A stretch of DNA of 64,000 nt from Escherichia coli (lineage in GTDB: Bacteria > Pseudomonadota > Gammaproteobacteria > Enterobacterales > Enterobacteriaceae), in NCBI RefSeq assembly GCF_044324785.1, contig NZ_CP172127.1; one strand, given 5' to 3'. Under the pieces are notes generated by a model, which was given only the letters and a program-made list of their open reading frames with translations, was not told where the DNA came from and ran no database searches. How positions within the stretch are numbered: position 1 is the first letter of the stretch; each line of letters opens with the position of its first letter. This document shows, piece after piece, positions 39,931-45,168 of the stretch. Position numbers and translations under genes: made by a program.

Positions 39931-40012
39931 GATGCCCTCCAATATGGTTATTTTTTATTGTGAATTAAGATAGGTGAGTACGACGTAAAAAGATGTGAAG
40001 CAAATCACATCA

Positions 40013-40028
40013 GTGTAATCGCTTACAC
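40013..40028. promoter_or_regulatory. candidate GalR/GalS operator upstream of galP (gtgtaatcgcttacac)
   Basis: Palindrome resembling the gal operator consensus, roughly 85-100 bp upstream of the galP start. Confidence 0.45.
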
Positions 40029-40317
40029 TAACATTTATCTTAGTTATGATTTAAGTGCATGAAAATAATTGAGTTATATCATCATAGATTAAACGCTGTT
40101 ATCTGCAATTAAGACTTTACTGAAAAGAAATGTAACAACTGTGAAAACCGAATAATAATATGAAAATATTACAAATCTTTGTCTGGTGTGGTTGGTGTAA
40201 TCGGTTTCAGTAGCGATGATAATTTGCGGTAAAACGTGTTCAGGAAGAATGATGTTATTGTGCGGGCAGCTTTTTGCCGGATGCCGCGTGAACGCCTATC
40301 CACCGCGGTGAGGTAAA

Positions 40318-40352
40318 AGAAAAAGGCCAGCGCGAGGCTGGCCTTTGAAAGC
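40318..40352 (-). terminator. metK rho-independent terminator
   Basis: Hairpin ggccagcctcgcgctggcc followed by a T-run on the minus strand just after the metK stop. Confidence 0.6.
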
Positions 40353-40365
40353 AGGTGAAGAAAGA

Positions 40366-41520
40366 TTACTTCAGACCGGCAGCATCGCGCAGCAGCTGCG
40401 CTTTGTCGGTTTTTTCCCACGGGAAATGTTCGCGACCAAAGTGACCGTATGCTGCGGTTTCTTTGTAGATCGGGTGCAGCAGATCCAGCATCTGAATCAG
40501 ACCGTATGGACGCAGGTCAAAGAACTCACGTACCAGCAGAGTCAGTTGTTCAGAAGGCACTTTCTCGGTACCGAAAGTTTCCACCATGATAGAGGTCGGT
40601 TCAGCCACGCCGATTGCGTAGGAAACCTGAATTTCACAACGATCGGCCAGGCCAGCAGCAACGATGTTTTTCGCGACATAACGTGCTGCGTACGCTGCGG
40701 AACGGTCCACTTTTGATGGATCTTTACCAGAGAATGCACCACCACCGTGACGTGCCATGCCGCCGTAGGTATCAACGATAATTTTACGACCAGTCAGACC
40801 GCAGTCACCCATCGGGCCACCGATAACAAAACGACCGGTCGGGTTGATGAAGAATTTGGTGGCAGAAGTCAGCCATTCAGCCGGCAGAATCGGCTTGATG
40901 ATCTCTTCCATTACCGCTTCTTGCAGCGATTTCTGGTCGATTTCTTCAGAGTGCTGAGTGGAAAGCACGACAGCATCGATACCAACGATTTTGCCGTCGT
41001 CATACTGGAAAGTCACCTGGCTTTTCGCGTCCGGGCGCAGCCACGGCAGAGTGCCGTTTTTACGCACTTCAGCCTGACGCTGTACCAGACGGTGTGCATA
41101 GGTGATAGGCGCTGGCATCAGCACGTCGGTTTCATTGGTTGCGTAGCCAAACATCAGACCCTGGTCACCCGCGCCCTGTTCCAGCGGATCGGCACGGTCA
41201 ACGCCCTGGTTGATGTCAGGAGACTGTTTGCCGATAGCGCTCAGAACCGCACAGGAGTTAGCGTCAAAGCCCATGTCGGAATGTACATAGCCAATTTCGC
41301 GAACGGTGTTACGGGTGATCTCTTCGATGTCTACCCAGGCGCTGGTGGTGATTTCGCCGCCAACTAAAACCATGCCGGTTTTTACGTAGGTTTCGCAAGC
41401 AACGCGTGCTTTCGGATCCTGTTCGAGGATCGCGTCTAAAACGGCATCAGAGATTTGGTCAGCAATTTTGTCAGGATGCCCTTCAGAGACGGACTCGGAC
41501 GTAAAAAGGTGTTTTGCCAT
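40366..41520 (-). CDS. metK: S-adenosylmethionine synthetase (384 aa)
   Basis: Start at internal ATG ([32 protein letters not shown]...). Confidence 0.95.
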
Positions 41521-41560
41521 ATTTAATATCACCTAAAGAGAATTTGGTTAGCTCAAACTG

Positions 41561-41827
41561 TTGTGTGGATTTTCTGTGGTAGCGGATCCTACCACGACTC
41601 TGCAGGTTAAAAACACTGGCAGTCTGAGTGTTAATCGGTATGGATGGATTAACATCTGGATGGCTATTTTAGGTCAGTTCTTCACCCAATTTCCACTTTT
41701 TTTTGAATCGTGTCTCATTCTGTTAAAAACGTGGCTGGAAATTTTTCCTGACAATGCTGGCATTCTGCGTATTTATCTTTTGCAATTTTCTGCCATTGTG
41801 GGGTATAAAACGCGGCGCGCGGCTTAA
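41561..41827 (+). CDS. small hypothetical ORF in the metK-speA intergenic region
   Basis: Open frame only; sits where K-12 annotates small yqgC/yqgD-type ORFs. I do not recognise the sequence. Confidence 0.2.
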
Positions 41828-42174
41828 ATAAAAAGCACACGACGTTTCTTTCGTGTTGCCACTTCCAGCCGGGTTGAAATCAGAGTTTTGGCTTGTGGGT
41901 TCGTCTTAACAGGCGGCCGTGGAGGTGATACGAAATAATGAACCGTTGTCTGCTGCTTAACCTGTCTCACCGTTCTGGTGAAGATTCGTTCCCCGCACTC
42001 TGCATCTCTGCTTTGCATACCTGCCGATGTTATACCCATCTCGGCGCTTCTCAGGATTCAAGAGCTGGTTACAGTTACTGAGGACTGAACAAGGGCGCTC
42101 TTGTAAAAACAAGAGTTTTCTCGTGGTTTCGCCGAACTGTCACACTTACGTTCGGTTATGTGCTTAATAATGTT

Positions 42175-42306
42175 ATGAAAAAGAAACCGGTTGCGCAGTT
42201 GGAGCGTCAGCATTCACTGCTGGAAAATCCATGTGCTTATGGGTTGTTATCGCAGTTCCAGGCTGCGATAGTCGTTAACTGTTTTACACTTAATAAAATA
42301 ATTTGA
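42175..42306 (+). CDS. yqgB: small protein YqgB (43 aa)
   Basis: [43 protein letters not shown] directly upstream of speA; below the track's length cut-off, found by reading the sequence. Confidence 0.7.
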
Positions 42307-42314
42307 GGTTCGCT

Positions 42315-44291
42315 ATGTCTGACGACATGTCTATGGGTTTGCCTTCGTCAGCGGGCGAACACGGTGTACTACGCTCCATGCAGGAGGTTGCAATGAGCTC
42401 CCAGGAAGCCAGCAAGATGCTGCGTACTTACAATATTGCCTGGTGGGGCAATAACTACTATGACGTTAACGAGCTGGGCCACATTAGCGTGTGCCCGGAC
42501 CCGGACGTCCCGGAAGCTCGCGTCGATCTCGCGCAGTTAGTGAAAACTCGTGAAGCACAGGGCCAGCGTCTGCCTGCACTGTTCTGTTTCCCACAGATCC
42601 TGCAGCACCGTTTGCGTTCCATTAACGCCGCGTTCAAACGAGCGCGGGAATCCTACGGCTATAACGGCGATTACTTCCTCGTTTATCCGATCAAAGTTAA
42701 CCAGCACCGCCGCGTGATTGAGTCCCTGATTCATTCGGGCGAACCGCTGGGCCTGGAGGCCGGTTCCAAAGCGGAGTTGATGGCGGTGCTGGCACATGCT
42801 GGCATGACCCGTAGCGTCATCGTCTGCAACGGTTATAAGGACCGCGAATATATCCGCCTGGCATTAATTGGCGAGAAGATGGGCCACAAGGTCTATCTGG
42901 TCATTGAGAAGATGTCAGAAATTGCCATTGTGCTGGATGAAGCAGAACGTCTGAATGTCGTTCCTCGTCTGGGCGTGCGTGCACGTCTGGCTTCGCAGGG
43001 CTCGGGTAAATGGCAGTCCTCTGGCGGGGAAAAATCGAAGTTCGGCCTGGCGGCGACTCAGGTACTGCAACTGGTTGAAACGCTGCGTGAAGCCGGGCGT
43101 CTCGACAGCCTGCAACTGCTGCACTTCCACCTCGGTTCGCAGATGGCGAATATTCGCGATATCGCGACAGGCGTTCGTGAATCCGCGCGTTTCTATGTTG
43201 AGCTGCACAAGCTGGGCGTCAATATTCAGTGCTTCGACGTCGGCGGCGGTCTGGGCGTGGACTATGAAGGCACCCGTTCGCAGTCCGACTGTTCGGTGAA
43301 CTACGGCCTCAATGAATACGCCAACAACATCATCTGGGCGATTGGTGATGCGTGTGAAGAAAATGGTCTGCCGCATCCGACGGTAATCACCGAATCGGGT
43401 CGTGCGGTGACTGCGCATCACACCGTGCTGGTGTCGAATATCATCGGCGTGGAACGTAACGAATACACGGTGCCGACCGCGCCTGCAGAAGACGCACCGC
43501 GCGCCCTGCAAAGCATGTGGGAAACCTGGCAGGAGATGCACGAACCGGGAACTCGCCGTTCTCTGCGTGAATGGTTACACGACAGCCAGATGGATCTGCA
43601 CGATATTCATATCGGCTACTCTTCCGGCACCTTTAGCCTGCAAGAACGCGCATGGGCTGAGCAGCTTTATTTGAGCATGTGCCATGAAGTGCAAAAGCAG
43701 CTGGATCCGCAAAACCGTGCTCATCGTCCGATTATCGACGAGCTGCAGGAACGTATGGCGGACAAAATGTACGTCAACTTCTCGCTGTTCCAGTCGATGC
43801 CGGATGCGTGGGGGATCGACCAGTTGTTCCCGGTTCTGCCGCTGGAAGGGCTGGATCAAGTGCCGGAACGCCGCGCTGTGCTGCTGGATATTACCTGTGA
43901 CTCTGACGGTGCTATTGATCACTATATTGATGGTGATGGTATTGCCACGACAATGCCAATGCCGGAGTACGATCCAGAGAATCCGCCGATGCTCGGTTTC
44001 TTCATGGTCGGCGCATATCAGGAGATCCTCGGCAACATGCACAACCTGTTCGGTGATACCGAAGCGGTTGACGTGTTCGTCTTCCCTGACGGCAGCGTAG
44101 AAGTAGAACTGTCTGACGAAGGCGATACCGTGGCGGATATGCTGCAATATGTACAGCTCGATCCGAAAACGTTGTTAACCCAGTTCCGTGATCAAGTGAA
44201 GAAAACCGATCTTGATGCTGAACTGCAACAACAGTTCCTTGAAGAGTTCGAGGCAGGTTTGTACGGTTATACCTATCTTGAAGATGAATAA
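42315..44291 (+). CDS. speA: biosynthetic arginine decarboxylase (658 aa)
   Basis: Start at internal ATG ([49 protein letters not shown]...). Confidence 0.95.
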
Positions 44292-44308
44292 TTAAGATTA
44301 TTCCGCTG

Positions 44309-44350
44309 GCGGGTCGATTTATTTACGTAAATCGGCCCGCTTTCTTTTTA
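44309..44350 (+). terminator. rho-independent terminator after speA
   Basis: Hairpin gcgggtcgattt...aaatcggcccgc followed by tttcttttt. Confidence 0.55.
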
Positions 44351-44436
44351 TATATTCTTAAAAATAATTTAGCTGCTTTTCTTATTAAATAATCCCCCTA
44401 CAATCGCTGCATTAATTAAATACAGAGGGAACGGTT

Positions 44437-45168
44437 ATGAAAAAATGGAAAGTACGTAGCGCGTTGATAGCATTAGTCGTGCTGCTGACCGGTTGTTCCA
44501 GTAATGCGCAGTATAATAGCAGTACATCGGGCAATGTCGGCACCGCCTGGGGTGGGGATGTGCACTCATCGGTTCAGGGCGTATCTGCTGAGCGAGCCTG
44601 GCGCGATCCGGCAGAGATGATCGTTATTAGTTATTCGACTACTGTTCCTTCGGGCTACGACCGCGTTTATAGCATTCGTATTAACGAACTGGAATATGCT
44701 ATTCGCGATGGTAATTTTAATTCTCTACCTATTACGCGGGTTTATGATTCATCCAATAATGAACCACGCTATATTGTCCATGCCAGAATCGGAATGAATT
44801 ATCAATTATATATCCGTAATTACAGTCGTAACACCAACTACGAGATCGTTGCTACGGTTGATGGCCTGGATGTGCTGAACGGCAAGCAAGGTTCGCTGAA
44901 TAACAATGGCTATATTGTGAATGCCGGAGATTCGTTAGCGATTAAAGGATTCCGCAAAGATAAACATACCGAAGCGGCTTTTCAGTTCGCCAACGTTGCT
45001 GATTCCTACGCAGCCAATTCGGCGCAAGGCGATGTGCGTAATACCGGGGTAATCGGCTTTGCCGCCTTTGAATTACAAGGCCCGGCGCAAAACGCGATGC
45101 CACCGTGCTCTGGACAAGCCTTTCCGGCAGATAACAATGGCTATGCACCGCCACCGTGCCGGAAATAG
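44437..45168 (+). CDS. predicted lipoprotein of unknown function (243 aa) inserted between speA and speB
   Basis: Lipobox (LLTGCSS); AT-rich leader; own terminator downstream; function unknown. Confidence 0.65.
   Translation: MKKWKVRSALIALVVLLTGCSSNAQYNSSTSGNVGTAWGGDVHSSVQGVSAERAWRDPAEMIVISYSTTVPSGYDRVYSIRINELEYAIRDGNFNSLPITRVYDSSNNEPRYIVHARIGMNYQLYIRNYSRNTNYEIVATVDGLDVLNGKQGSLNNNGYIVNAGDSLAIKGFRKDKHTEAAFQFANVADSYAANSAQGDVRNTGVIGFAAFELQGPAQNAMPPCSGQAFPADNNGYAPPPCRK

Follow-up and report, generated by a model that had tools for sequence, protein, structure and literature searches.

In E. coli, the divergent genes metK (minus strand) and speA (plus strand) are separated by an intergenic region in which four small genes are annotated. 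The question is which of these small reading frames are genes and how the region that holds them acts on speA. We analysed this region at positions 41521-42314 of the window, that is, of the whole 64,000-nucleotide stretch of contig NZ_CP172127.1. Its left border is the metK ATG at 41520. Of 5,426 complete E. coli genomes, 5,425 carry this region at 99-100% identity. From speA to metK, the annotated K-12 genes are yqgB (b2939), yqgG (b4784), yqgC (b2940) and yqgD (b2941). K-12 coordinates (NC_000913.3) were mapped as window = 42315 + 3085911 - K-12 coordinate. After mapping, the genes and coordinates are identical to those of the K-12 locus and of the speA 5'UTR described by Adams et al. (2021), with no sequence difference. 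For comparison we used 74 orthologous loci, including 56 Enterobacteriaceae species and 18 Erwiniaceae. The locus, its ORFs and the regulatory role of the speA leader are already known. What the present analysis contributes is that the frames of yqgC and yqgD do not pass conservation tests, and that yqgB has the behaviour of a translated, peptide-neutral uORF. We consider it fairly probable that the region is a divergent metK/speA control region in which the speAB leader works as a uORF-coupled, Rho-dependent attenuator.

A preliminary description had called the region rich in small ORFs. The 43-aa yqgB that it recognised directly upstream of speA is present, as are the two other frames that it listed at the position of the K-12 y-genes: the ORF on the plus strand (41561..41827) contains yqgD, and the one on the minus strand is yqgC. 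The description overlooked yqgG. The ORFs thus exist, and a richness over chance is not demonstrable: eight ORFs of at least 40 aa were found against 5.0 ± 1.6 expected (P = 0.06, 1000 dinucleotide shuffles). An ORF of at least 88 aa appeared in 31% of the shuffles, and one of at least 71 aa in 64%. On this test we rejected ORF richness as evidence by itself. Similarity of all four ORFs across genera in tblastn searches is also uninformative alone, because conserved nucleotides yield translated similarity in any frame. It was replaced by tests of ORF integrity, codon phase and dN/dS. The further proposal of the description, a candidate regulatory region for speA, agrees with the Rho-dependent termination reported by Adams et al. 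(2021), the conserved structured leader and the two conserved uORFs. All features are collected in Table 1.

Table 1. Features of the metK-speA region in window coordinates
Feature	Position	Strand	Basis and properties
metK CDS (methionine adenosyltransferase)	40366..41520	-	ORF list; RefSeq annotation of a 100%-identical strain and K-12
yqgD (b2941, 83 aa)	41576..41827	+	K-12 and RefSeq annotation; 88-aa version from TTG begins at 41561
Conserved block	41621..41680	.	Top conservation within the metK-proximal half; in 51 non-Escherichia species, 83-95% identical to E. coli
Putative speA promoter	41780..41817	+	-35 TTGCAA (41780-41785), 18-nt spacer, -10 TATAAA (41804-41809); hexamers read from the sequence
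yqgC (b2940, 71 aa)	41824..42039	-	K-12 annotation only; absent from PGAP genomes
H1, 5'-proximal hairpin	41835..41859	+	4/6 pairs compensatory (e.g. AU:23/GC:18); -8.7 kcal/mol, z -2.1
H2, hairpin adjoining the yqgG Shine-Dalgarno	41898..41918	+	6/8 pairs compensatory, up to 6 pair types per position
yqgG Shine-Dalgarno, GGAGGTGA	41921..41928	+	Nearly invariant in the alignment
yqgG (b4784, 47 aa), upstream uORF of the speA leader	41938..42081	+	K-12 annotation, Pfam, Weaver 2019
C-rich/G-poor tract	41950..42056	+	Composition scan, C/G up to 2.3; sole such tract of the leader, inside yqgG
H3, hairpin in yqgG codons 10-15	41966..41982	+	7/7 pairs compensatory, 80% of cells paired; -7.9 kcal/mol, z -1.95
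H4, GCCG...CGGC stem in the invariant yqgG motif codons	42023..42045	+	98.7% of cells paired; invariant or one-sided changes only
H5, extended stem-loop 3' of the yqgG stop	42089..42124	+	6/6 core pairs compensatory, 98.8% paired; -13 kcal/mol, z -3.2
H6b, GGUUUC (42125-42130) with GAAACC (42183-42188, yqgB codons 3-5)	42125..42188	+	99.7% of cells paired
yqgB (b2939, 43 aa), proximal uORF	42175..42306	+	K-12 and RefSeq annotation, Pfam
H7, UUAUCGC.../...GCGAUAG hairpin in yqgB codons 23-36	42242..42280	+	99.5% paired, one-sided changes only; -14.4 kcal/mol, z -2.7
H8, speA SD end, AUG (42315) and codons 2-3, GUUCGCUAUGUCUGAC with GUCAGCGGGCGAAC	42308..42360	+	14 pairs, 98.7% of cells paired
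speA (biosynthetic arginine decarboxylase)	42315..44291	+	ORF list, RefSeq and K-12 annotation
Internal alternative speA start, ATG	42393	+	SD CAGGAGG

The leader RNA of speA and its termination by Rho

The 5' end of the speA leader is at 41817, as given by the speA 5'UTR cloning primer GCGCGGCTTAAATAAAAAGC (Adams et al. 2021), and the promoter block 41801-41820 is 90% conserved. The leader is 498 nt long and contains at least eight conserved helices, five of which show compensatory changes. We showed that the 67 proposed pairs are 95.5% paired, as compared with 33-48% in slid controls. Compensatory changes were found in 25 pairs; the number of compensatory cells was 185, against 36-50 in the slid controls and 65 ± 8 after shuffling (0/500). 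RNAalifold independently finds the helices other than H3, which we added by eye. The fold of the E. coli leader recovers H3-H8 with a z of -2.7. The helices and both uORFs are conserved across the Enterobacteriaceae and largely across the Erwiniaceae.

The individual helices differ in what they show. Read on the minus strand, H1 is a terminator-like hairpin followed by a T-run at the end of 'yqgC'. H2 is weak in the E. coli fold alone (z -0.75). A Term-seq 3' end lies at 41931, which is K-12 3086295(-) (Adams et al. 2021, supplementary file 1). In the region of H4, the third codon positions are also invariant. The core of H5 is formed by 42098-42103 and 42110-42115, and the U-run pairs with AAGGG. 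A sequence scan had flagged H5 (42097-42116) as terminator-like, but as an intrinsic terminator or attenuator it was rejected: it has three GC pairs only, its U-run is paired, and no Term-seq 3' end is listed there. Since H6b is invariant, it gives no covariation evidence. It encloses the hairpin H6 (42132-42135/42152-42155; compensatory changes in 2 of 4 pairs) and the A/U-rich start region of yqgB, and both H6 and H6b are in the MFE fold of E. coli. In H7 the loop and the inner codons vary, and the stem is kept; Salmonella, Citrobacter and Klebsiella have a UUCG tetraloop there as the loop. H4, H6b, H7 and H8 are invariant or change on one side, with no compensatory doubles; their conservation could also stem from coding or other constraints.

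H8 lies at the start of speA. Five of its pairs have pair-preserving one-sided changes and none is compensatory; its E. coli fold reaches -23.3 kcal/mol at a z of only -1.4 and overlaps speA codons 1-16. Two marks of translational coupling are seen here. The SD end and the AUG of the downstream gene are enclosed in a conserved stable stem, and the upstream ORF, yqgB, ends only a few nucleotides away from where the downstream gene starts. Adams et al. (2021) described a transcript of yqgG-yqgB-speAB, together with its premature Rho-dependent termination in the speA leader. The Rho-dependent Term-seq 3' end is at 42372 (K-12 3085854(-), Rho score 3.09, flagged 'uORF'; Adams et al. 2021), 57 nt into speA. 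In the rhoR66S mutant, the signals of a speA leader lacZ fusion and of Northern blots are increased, and yqgB-speA is listed as a candidate uORF only (Adams et al. 2021).

The two upstream reading frames

The best-supported small gene of the region is yqgG. Its translation was validated by Ribo-RET/Onc112 and with an SPA tag (Weaver 2019). Using hmmscan, we found that YqgG is a member of the Pfam family PF23505 (129.9 bits at a cut-off of 27, full length 1-47). A protein database search with YqgG gave 17 relatives, all in PF23505 and all from Enterobacteriaceae except one partial entry labelled Pseudomonas aeruginosa; this search adds little beyond the locus comparison, because small ORFs are seldom annotated. 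In 67 of the 74 loci, Erwiniaceae included, there is a yqgG ORF of 42-53 aa, and its distance to the speA ATG is constant (about 365-380 nt). Near its end the peptide has a motif D-S/T-x-A/G-G, behind which stands a tail of 0-6 aa that varies; in Erwiniaceae the motif stands directly at the stop. Over the motif codons 27-44, dN/dS is 0.32 in frame as against 0.59 and 3.14 off frame, and the codon-phase entropy of yqgG is 0.43/0.17/0.50. The D-S-R-A-G codons vary chiefly at synonymous sites (third positions and first-position changes between the Arg codons CGN and AGR). These substitution patterns indicate that the C-terminal motif of YqgG is under peptide-level selection. By its composition alone, the C-rich tract inside yqgG is a candidate Rho-loading (rut) region, which would be masked by yqgG translation.

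YqgB is a member of the Pfam family PF11036 (hmmscan, 113.3 bits at a cut-off of 24, full length 1-43). In an arrest-peptide screen, YqgB was grouped with aggregation-type responses; YqgG is not named in the main text of that screen. The yqgB gene has no obvious SD. Its stop TGA overlaps the SD of speA (TTTGAGG) and lies 8 nt before the speA ATG. Its start codon was detected in vitro by INRI-seq and was missed by Ribo-RET in vivo. The yqgB ATG is present in all 56 Enterobacteriaceae species. The stop is the TGA at 42304-42306 in 31 species (33 if the insert-bearing loci L022 and L038 are counted) and a TGA inside ATGTCTGA in 23. In at least 54 of these species, and probably in all 56, the stop therefore lies either 8 nt ahead of the AUG of speA or at positions +6..+8 of that gene. 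A positional equivalent of yqgB with the same stop pattern was found in 17 of 18 Erwiniaceae. This proximity of the stop to the speA AUG is partly automatic, because the invariant TGAGG and ATGTCTGA stop two of the three frames there. The real signal of yqgB is that its frame stays open up to the speA RBS: it is open in 55 of 56 species, as compared with 0/56 and 7/56 for the other frames. Tested for peptide selection as an attenuator uORF, yqgB as a whole gave none (dN/dS 0.98 at a dS of 0.29; in the speA body, dN/dS is 0.02 and dS 0.99). In its first eight codons (MKKKPVAQ), dN/dS is 0.31. Apparently, yqgB evolves as a translated, peptide-neutral uORF.

Like uORF-dependent Rho attenuators of the tnaC, speFL and mdtU type, the leader has translated, conserved uORFs (yqgG in 67/74 loci and yqgB in 56/56, with translation taken from the literature). 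In the mechanism that we propose, the metK-proximal third of the region would be the metK promoter/operator, and the remainder would consist of the speA promoter, located within the 'yqgD' frame, and the 498-nt leader. Ribosomes completing yqgB would melt H8, and speA initiation would be permitted. Translated speA mRNA would be shielded from Rho, and untranslated mRNA would be terminated at about 42372. If so, yqgB would matter through being translated and not through its peptide (dN/dS of about 1). As the upstream input, yqgG would set how much transcription and translation reaches yqgB-speA. The flux through yqgB-speA coupling may be low, because yqgB has no SD and its start is unseen in Ribo-RET. 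The internal speA start with its strong SD could also bypass the coupling.

It is also conceivable, but in our view unlikely, that yqgB and yqgG are ordinary genes whose small protein products act in trans and that their place upstream of speA is a matter of operon organisation and not of cis-regulation. YqgB would then be an acid stress or virulence peptide that, for example, activates speA/speB or the arginine-dependent acid response. Its RefSeq name is 'acid stress response protein', and PF11036 is described as 'virulence promoting factor'; however, the overall dN/dS of 0.98 and a synonymous rate one-third of that of speA speak against a protein with such a role. In Salmonella, deletion of yqgB makes the cells more sensitive to colistin and acid and reduces the mRNA of speA/speB as well as arginine decarboxylase, which was read as protein function, but a cis or polar effect on the coupled, Rho-sensitive speA accounts for these phenotypes equally well. 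Drugs have been reported to bind YqgB, and its overexpression induces heat-shock proteins, perturbing the proteome. The dN/dS of the first eight codons of yqgB and the selection on the YqgG motif would suit acting peptides. However, no codon position varies in the conserved blocks of yqgB, all three being invariant, and these blocks fall on H6b and H7. The C-terminal residues of yqgB are read in different frames in different species, yet the stop remains at the speA RBS, and the positional uORF of Pantoea encodes an unrelated peptide.

We regard it as quite improbable that the leader is chiefly an RNA-level sensor, either riboswitch-like and binding a ligand or targeted by an sRNA, by Hfq or by another RNA-binding protein, in which the uORFs are incidental or relays. 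The whole leader is structured, with strong covariation, and its long stretches without variation at any codon position (H4, H6b, H7, flanks of H5) go beyond the needs of simple hairpins. Nevertheless, no Rfam family matched in a cmscan of 40000-44500 at E <=1, where the sole match was a spurious Brucella sRNA outside the region. An A-rich (ARN-like) tract between H7 and the speA SD and the short 5' fragment ending at 41931 would have a place in such a device, but an RNA-only device leaves the selection on the C-terminal peptide of YqgG unexplained, and both uORFs are kept open as against frequent stops in the other frames. The reading that we prefer is uORF-coupled attenuation by Rho.

The metK-proximal block, yqgC and yqgD

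The conserved block at 41621..41680 contains the palindrome GTTAATC-N10-GATTAAC, and a promoter scan gave a sigma70-like match on the minus strand at 41695..41666. This suggests that the block is the metK promoter/operator. The operator is only inferred, because the strict search for a tandem MetJ box (AGACGTCT x2, up to 3 mismatches) found no match within the window. The block also explains why a part of the YqgD translation looks 'conserved'.

The frame of yqgD overlaps the metK upstream region, the speA promoter and the TSS. A conserved protein-coding gene keeps its frame, start and length and has a dN/dS well below 1; yqgD fails this test. Its start codon is at the aligned position in only 15 of 56 species, and 23 of 56 have no in-frame start. 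ORF lengths range from 27 to 163 aa, indels in the C-terminal half occur in 51 of 56 species, and dN/dS is 0.71 at a dS of 0.156. Among the orthologous loci, the frame is intact only in Escherichia. YqgD gave no Pfam match. Thus, yqgD is probably not a protein-coding gene.

The yqgC frame is antisense to the 5' region of yqgG, and its ATG arises from a conserved His codon of yqgG read on the complementary strand. No ribosome density was found on yqgC, and its tagged protein was undetected (Weaver 2019). Across genera the ORF is 8-140 aa long and mostly truncated, which a conserved protein-coding gene would not be. Using hmmscan, we assigned YqgC to the Pfam family PF17430 (YqgC-like; 133.9 bits at a gathering cut-off of 25). 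This match reflects only the nucleotide conservation of the leader, and membership is no proof of translation. yqgC, too, is probably not a protein-coding gene. Because yqgC and yqgD stand on SOS gene lists, we also searched for a LexA box (CTGT-N8-ACAG with at most one mismatch), and no site was found in the region.

It is very improbable that yqgC and yqgD are real protein-coding genes as annotated in K-12, even though thousands of genomes carry a 'protein YqgD' in their PGAP annotation, a yqgG-yqgC 'excludon' is among those listed by RNA-seq-based tools and the yqgD frame is the sole one open across the conserved block in 45 of 56 species, since, beside the failures above, ORFs of such lengths arise by chance in 31-64% of shuffles and both frames overlap promoters or the leader of real genes. 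The two frames are very likely by-products of conserved nucleotides and not genes, that is, annotation artefacts of a conserved regulatory region, and the record should be corrected in this sense. As players in the control of speA they drop out, not being conserved as reading frames outside Escherichia. The preliminary description had suggested a conservation analysis of the small ORFs, which yqgB passes and yqgC and yqgD fail. It had also named missing ribosome occupancy as an argument against its proposal; occupancy is missing on yqgC, and not on yqgG and yqgB.

Comparison with known leaders and implications

In the mdtU-mdtJI operon of E. coli, which is related to polyamines, a spermidine-responsive uORF controls Rho-dependent termination (Adams et al. 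2021). The speA leader resembles it in having a leader uORF with a conserved C-terminus, a Rho-dependent 3' end just downstream and a target in the polyamine pathway. It differs from mdtU-mdtJI in the number of its uORFs, which is two, and in its structured RNA, which is much longer (498 nt). The mdtJI genes encode an efflux system induced by polyamines, whereas speA is biosynthetic and is reportedly repressed by polyamines; because of this, the sign of control would be opposite. In speFL/orf34-speF, an ornithine-sensing arrest peptide acts together with Rho, and in tnaC-tnaAB a tryptophan-sensing one does so. With these leaders the speA leader shares a short ORF, conserved C-terminal residues beside the stop and termination by Rho ahead of the structural gene; its C-rich tract would be the counterpart of their rut region. 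It has no sequence similarity to them, its C-rich tract is inside yqgG and not after it, and yqgG is separated from speA by a second uORF, yqgB, and by an RBS-sequestering hairpin. The position of the yqgB stop at the speA AUG, with the SD end and AUG in a conserved 14-bp stem, is like classical polycistronic coupling and the opening of the RBS in erm leaders; unlike in classical coupling, speA has the internal start at 42393.

The C-terminus of YqgG (...SQDSRAG) bears a superficial resemblance to that of SecM, whose arrest motif is ...GIRAGP (...SQAQGIRAG-P). This is a lead only: the spacing differs, no Pro follows, and Erwiniaceae (PDTSAG) do not keep the Arg. In the polyamine pathway of eukaryotes, the AdoMetDC uORF peptide MAGDIS acts at termination, a parallel that is likewise no more than a lead. 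It is possible, although we hold it tentatively, that YqgG is a leader peptide of the arrest type that serves the arginine-to-putrescine branch as a sensor, in the way of SpeFL and MdtU. The motif D-S/T-x-A/G-G would then stall or slow the ribosome upon polyamine, agmatine, arginine or pH. Through the stall, the C-rich tract would become masked or exposed and H5/H6b would be remodelled, which would decide on yqgB translation and, through it, on the escape of speAB from Rho. In our literature search we found no published leader-peptide mechanism for speA.

These results bear on YqgB, which is named an acid-stress protein and has been proposed as a drug target. Because yqgB evolves like a translated, peptide-neutral uORF, the phenotypes of its deletion may be cis effects on speA. 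If YqgG is indeed such a sensor, the published phenotypes of the 'YqgB protein', namely sensitivity to acid and to colistin, would for the most part come about in cis, through speA. Together, the YqgG motif and the helix map give a testable model of the control of arginine decarboxylase in enterobacteria, a route to polyamines.

Small frames of the metK-speA spacer

The locus is ordinary, already annotated and partly characterised. The window is E. coli DNA. Among 5,426 complete genomes of this species, 5,425 match the 1,051 bases around the spacer over their whole length, nearly all at an identity of at least 99%. In K-12 (NC_000913.3), the spacer is 794 bp long and contains four annotated small genes; PGAP-annotated genomes carry yqgD, yqgG and yqgB and omit yqgC. 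The three small ORFs noticed in the preliminary description are real, were placed correctly and match yqgB, yqgD and yqgC. The region is not convincingly rich in small ORFs, as had been claimed: it holds 8 ORFs of at least 40 aa, where dinucleotide shuffling gives 5.0 ± 1.6 (P = 0.06), and their size is not unusual. An 88-aa ORF arises in 31% of dinucleotide shuffles of the spacer, and therefore an open frame alone is no evidence of a gene.

Genes, K-12-annotated small frames and proposed leader helices of the metK-speA region (window coordinates)
Feature	Position	Strand	K-12 locus tag, length	Location	Conservation pattern
metK	ATG at 41520	-		left border of spacer	
yqgD	41576..41827	+	b2941, 83 aa		
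yqgC	41824..42039	-	b2940, 71 aa		
yqgG	41938..42081	+	b4784, 47 aa	overlaps yqgC on opposite strand	
yqgB	42175..42306	+	b2939, 43 aa		
speA	ATG at 42315	+		right border of spacer	
H1	41835-59			leader 5' end	covariation
H2	41898-918			abuts yqgG SD	covariation
H3	41966-82			inside yqgG	covariation
H4	42023-45			inside yqgG motif codons	invariant or pair-preserving single changes only
H5	core 42098-115			3' of yqgG stop	covariation
H6	42132-55			between H5 and yqgB start	covariation
H6b	GGUUUC 42125-30 with GAAACC 42183-88			3' arm is yqgB codons 3-5	invariant or pair-preserving single changes
H7	42242-80			within yqgB; several genera have a UUCG tetraloop	invariant or pair-preserving single changes
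H8	42308-23 with 42347-60			encloses end of speA SD, AUG, codons 2-3	invariant or pair-preserving single changes

The SpeA N-terminus, searched against a single genome of each species, gave 80 loci in Enterobacteriaceae and Erwiniaceae, 73 of which showed the divergent layout with a spacer of 630-960 bp; in the others, no full-length match to the metK N-terminus is present, mostly through a truncated contig or locus. All four E. coli frames show translated similarity in other genera. This arises because the nucleotide sequence is conserved, and therefore ORF integrity and substitution patterns were tested instead in 56 aligned Enterobacteriaceae spacers. Conservation, proposed in the preliminary description as a check, separates the frames: yqgG and yqgB are kept, yqgC and yqgD are not.

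The yqgD start codon is at the aligned position in only 15 of the 56 species, and 23 have no in-frame start whatever. The frame is intact in Escherichia only, with a premature stop in one Escherichia species; lengths range from 27 to 163 aa, and 51/56 species have indels in the C-terminal half. Its conserved block (41621-41680) has a dN/dS of 0.71 at a very low dS (0.156), the speA -35/-10 and TSS fall within its 3' end, and it has no Pfam family. These patterns are best read as a frame staying open by chance across regulatory DNA. The same block, the most conserved one near metK, contains a promoter-like match facing metK and, at ~41631-41657, a perfect 7-bp inverted repeat, GTTAATC-N10-GATTAAC, which is probably a regulator-binding site for metK. 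TGGATGG occurs twice close to this repeat. No strict MetJ box was found.

The yqgC ATG is kept in 52/56 species, only because it is the complement of a conserved yqgG His codon; ORF lengths are 8-140 aa, most being truncated. Ribosome occupancy, the other check proposed earlier, is lacking for yqgC, for which neither ribosome density nor a tagged protein was seen (Weaver et al. 2019). Judged by ORF lengths and the absent ribosome density, yqgC is very probably not a gene despite its Pfam entry. Profiling of initiation complexes did discover yqgG, whose tagged protein was detected (Weaver et al. 2019), and the yqgB start codon was detected in vitro by INRI-seq. The suggestion of a speA regulatory region was right in spirit; it had been pinned to the wrong frames, yqgD and yqgC, and yqgG was missed.

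Downstream, speA and speB are separated by an ORF of 243 aa (44437..45168, plus strand) that encodes a lipoprotein-type signal (...LLTGCSS). Strain AR_0013, which is 100% identical, has it annotated only as a 'hypothetical protein', WP_000758897.1. In K-12 this position is without a gene, and the distance from speA to speB is 137 nt. The ORF is an accessory insertion within the speAB operon.

Selection on yqgG and yqgB

The yqgG SD GGAGGTGA and start are kept (Buttiauxella uses a TTG one codon upstream), and the length is 42-53 aa. By the criterion of SD plus ORF, a homologue is present in 67/74 loci, including Erwiniaceae, always ~365-380 nt from the speA ATG. The Erwiniaceae C-terminus is ...NPDTSAG; the core common to both families, D-[ST]-x-[AG]-G, precedes a tail of 0-6 variable residues and, in Erwiniaceae, directly abuts the stop. 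Variation in the D-S-R-A-G codons is mainly synonymous (third positions and Arg CGN/AGR first-position changes). For codons 27-44, codon-phase entropy is 0.43/0.17/0.50; their in-frame dN/dS is 0.32, and the two off-frame values are 0.59 and 3.14. These in-frame patterns indicate that the C-terminal peptide motif is under selection. The N-terminal half lacks codon periodicity and holds the covarying hairpin H3. We take ...SQDSRAG of YqgG to resemble, imperfectly, ...GIRAGP of SecM and treat this only as a lead; the spacing differs, and Erwiniaceae YqgG reads PDTSAG. It is rather unlikely that YqgG is a metabolite-responsive arrest peptide. Two loci, L034 (an Enterobacter MAG) and L037, miss the 5' part of the leader; L034, with a spacer of 633 bp, has no yqgG SD or start and retains the YqgG motif codons, H5-H8 and yqgB. 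They may be assembly artefacts or natural deletion variants.

All 56 species have the yqgB ATG, and 55 of them keep the frame open, compared with 0/56 and 7/56 for the two alternative frames. It stops at a TGA overlapping the speA SD (42304-06) in 31 species, probably also in the insert-bearing loci L022 and L038; in 23 species the variable tail changes frame, and the stop is a TGA inside ATGTCTGA of speA; its closeness to speA is partly forced by these invariant TGAs. A positional equivalent in 17/18 Erwiniaceae ends at the second TGA; a GLLS...AIVVNC block is retained in Erwinia, and the peptide is unrelated in Pantoea. The dN/dS of yqgB is 0.98 (dN 0.286, dS 0.292), with a dS of 0.986 and a dN/dS of 0.02 in the speA body, and in its conserved blocks all three codon positions are invariant. 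The first eight codons, which overlap helix H6b, have a dN/dS of 0.31. Therefore, both an open frame as far as the speA RBS and the RNA elements are selected and, these eight codons excepted, the amino-acid sequence is not. yqgB has no SD and is weakly detected in vivo.

The speA leader transcript and its structure

The speA 5' UTR was cloned from primer GCGCGGCTTAAATAAAAAGC (41817) to 42314, its Rho-dependent termination was demonstrated with lacZ fusions and Northern blots, and a yqgG-yqgB-speAB transcript was described (Adams et al. 2021). In the same study, yqgB-speA is listed with other validated small ORFs that have an RNA 3' end <200 nt downstream. The dominant 3' end, K-12 3085854(-), corresponds to 42372, 57 nt into speA (Rho score 3.09, flag 'uORF'); the second Term-seq end, K-12 3086295(-), corresponds to 41931, just upstream of the yqgG AUG (Adams et al. 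2021). The latter lies 12 nt past H2 within the yqgG SD-AUG spacer and would delimit a 5' leader fragment of ~115 nt (41817-41931), produced by either processing or termination. An internal speA start at 42393 was confirmed by INRI-seq; its ATG and SD CAGGAGG (42380-42395) are invariant in 56/56 aligned species. The Rho-dependent end at 42372 sits between the two starts, and therefore the leader could control the long and short SpeA isoforms differently.

Using RNAalifold on the leader (41817..42390) aligned with 55 orthologues (alignment A1), we obtained 85 predicted pairs, 22 with compensatory changes. For 67 curated pairs, belonging to 11 helices, the controls were partners slid 1-3 columns and 500 shuffles. 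Pairing was kept in 95.5% of cells versus 33-48% after sliding. Double changes occurred in 25 pairs and 185 cells, versus 36-50 cells slid and 65 ± 8 shuffled, and 0/500 shuffles reached the observed value. H4, H6b, H7 and H8 have no compensatory changes. In E. coli, H8 has a folding energy of -23.3 kcal/mol. For the leader as a whole, z is -2.7; H3-H8 reappear in its MFE fold, and no Rfam family matches it. H5 had been flagged as terminator-like; we rejected this, as no 3' end was reported there (Adams et al. 2021) and the extended stem (42089-42124; -13 kcal/mol, z -3.2) pairs the U-run with a conserved AAGGG.

On the minus strand, H1 (41837-41856) and the conserved A-run 41830-41834 read as a hairpin and T-run resembling a terminator, at the yqgC 3' end. 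Such a hairpin could stop antisense transcription short of the metK promoter; the excerpt of the Adams table around the locus has no minus-strand 3' end. Insertions of ~120 nt lie directly after the TSS in L009, L023, L029 and L033 (A1 columns ~27-150), from several Citrobacter and Enterobacter species, and inside the yqgB tail in L039 (columns ~860-980), where the frame still continues to the speA RBS. They resemble ERIC repeats (...CCCCAGTCACTTACTCATGTAAGCTCCCGGGGA...).

Proposed control of speA by its leader

The leader belongs to a yqgG-yqgB-speAB transcript, which Rho terminates at ~42372, and both yqgG and yqgB are translated. Their frames and the helices are conserved. A conserved stem encloses the speA AUG, and yqgB always terminates at this stem. 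We propose that ribosomes finishing yqgB would unwind H8 and so allow speA initiation at the first AUG by translational coupling. If speA were untranslated, Rho would terminate 15 nt beyond H8. It would probably load on the candidate rut-like tract at 41950-42056, inside yqgG, the only C-rich/G-poor stretch of the leader in a composition scan (C/G up to 2.3). With its strong SD, selected peptide motif and internal rut-like tract, yqgG would be an upstream control point. A Salmonella yqgB deletion mutant was reported to have less speA/speB mRNA, arginine decarboxylase and spermidine (Cai et al. 2026); the model accounts for the mRNA drop as a cis effect. It is highly likely that the region acts as a regulatory leader in which two uORFs are functional, and that two of the annotated genes are spurious. 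Control of speA by uORF coupling and Rho is probable overall, and for the yqgB-H8 coupling specifically the balance tips only slightly in favour.

No published account of how the speA leader works was found in the literature searched. Its nearest counterparts are uORF/Rho attenuators from the same part of metabolism, mdtU-mdtJI (spermidine; Adams et al. 2021) and speFL/orf34-speF (ornithine), and likewise tnaC. They share architecture with the speA leader but not sequence; unlike them, it has two serial uORFs, a long RNA with covariation and, where speA begins, a putative coupling hairpin. The modest remaining interest of the locus concerns the mechanism of speA leader control, yqgC and yqgD as likely mis-annotations, and the possibility that phenotypes ascribed to a 'YqgB protein' are cis effects on speA.
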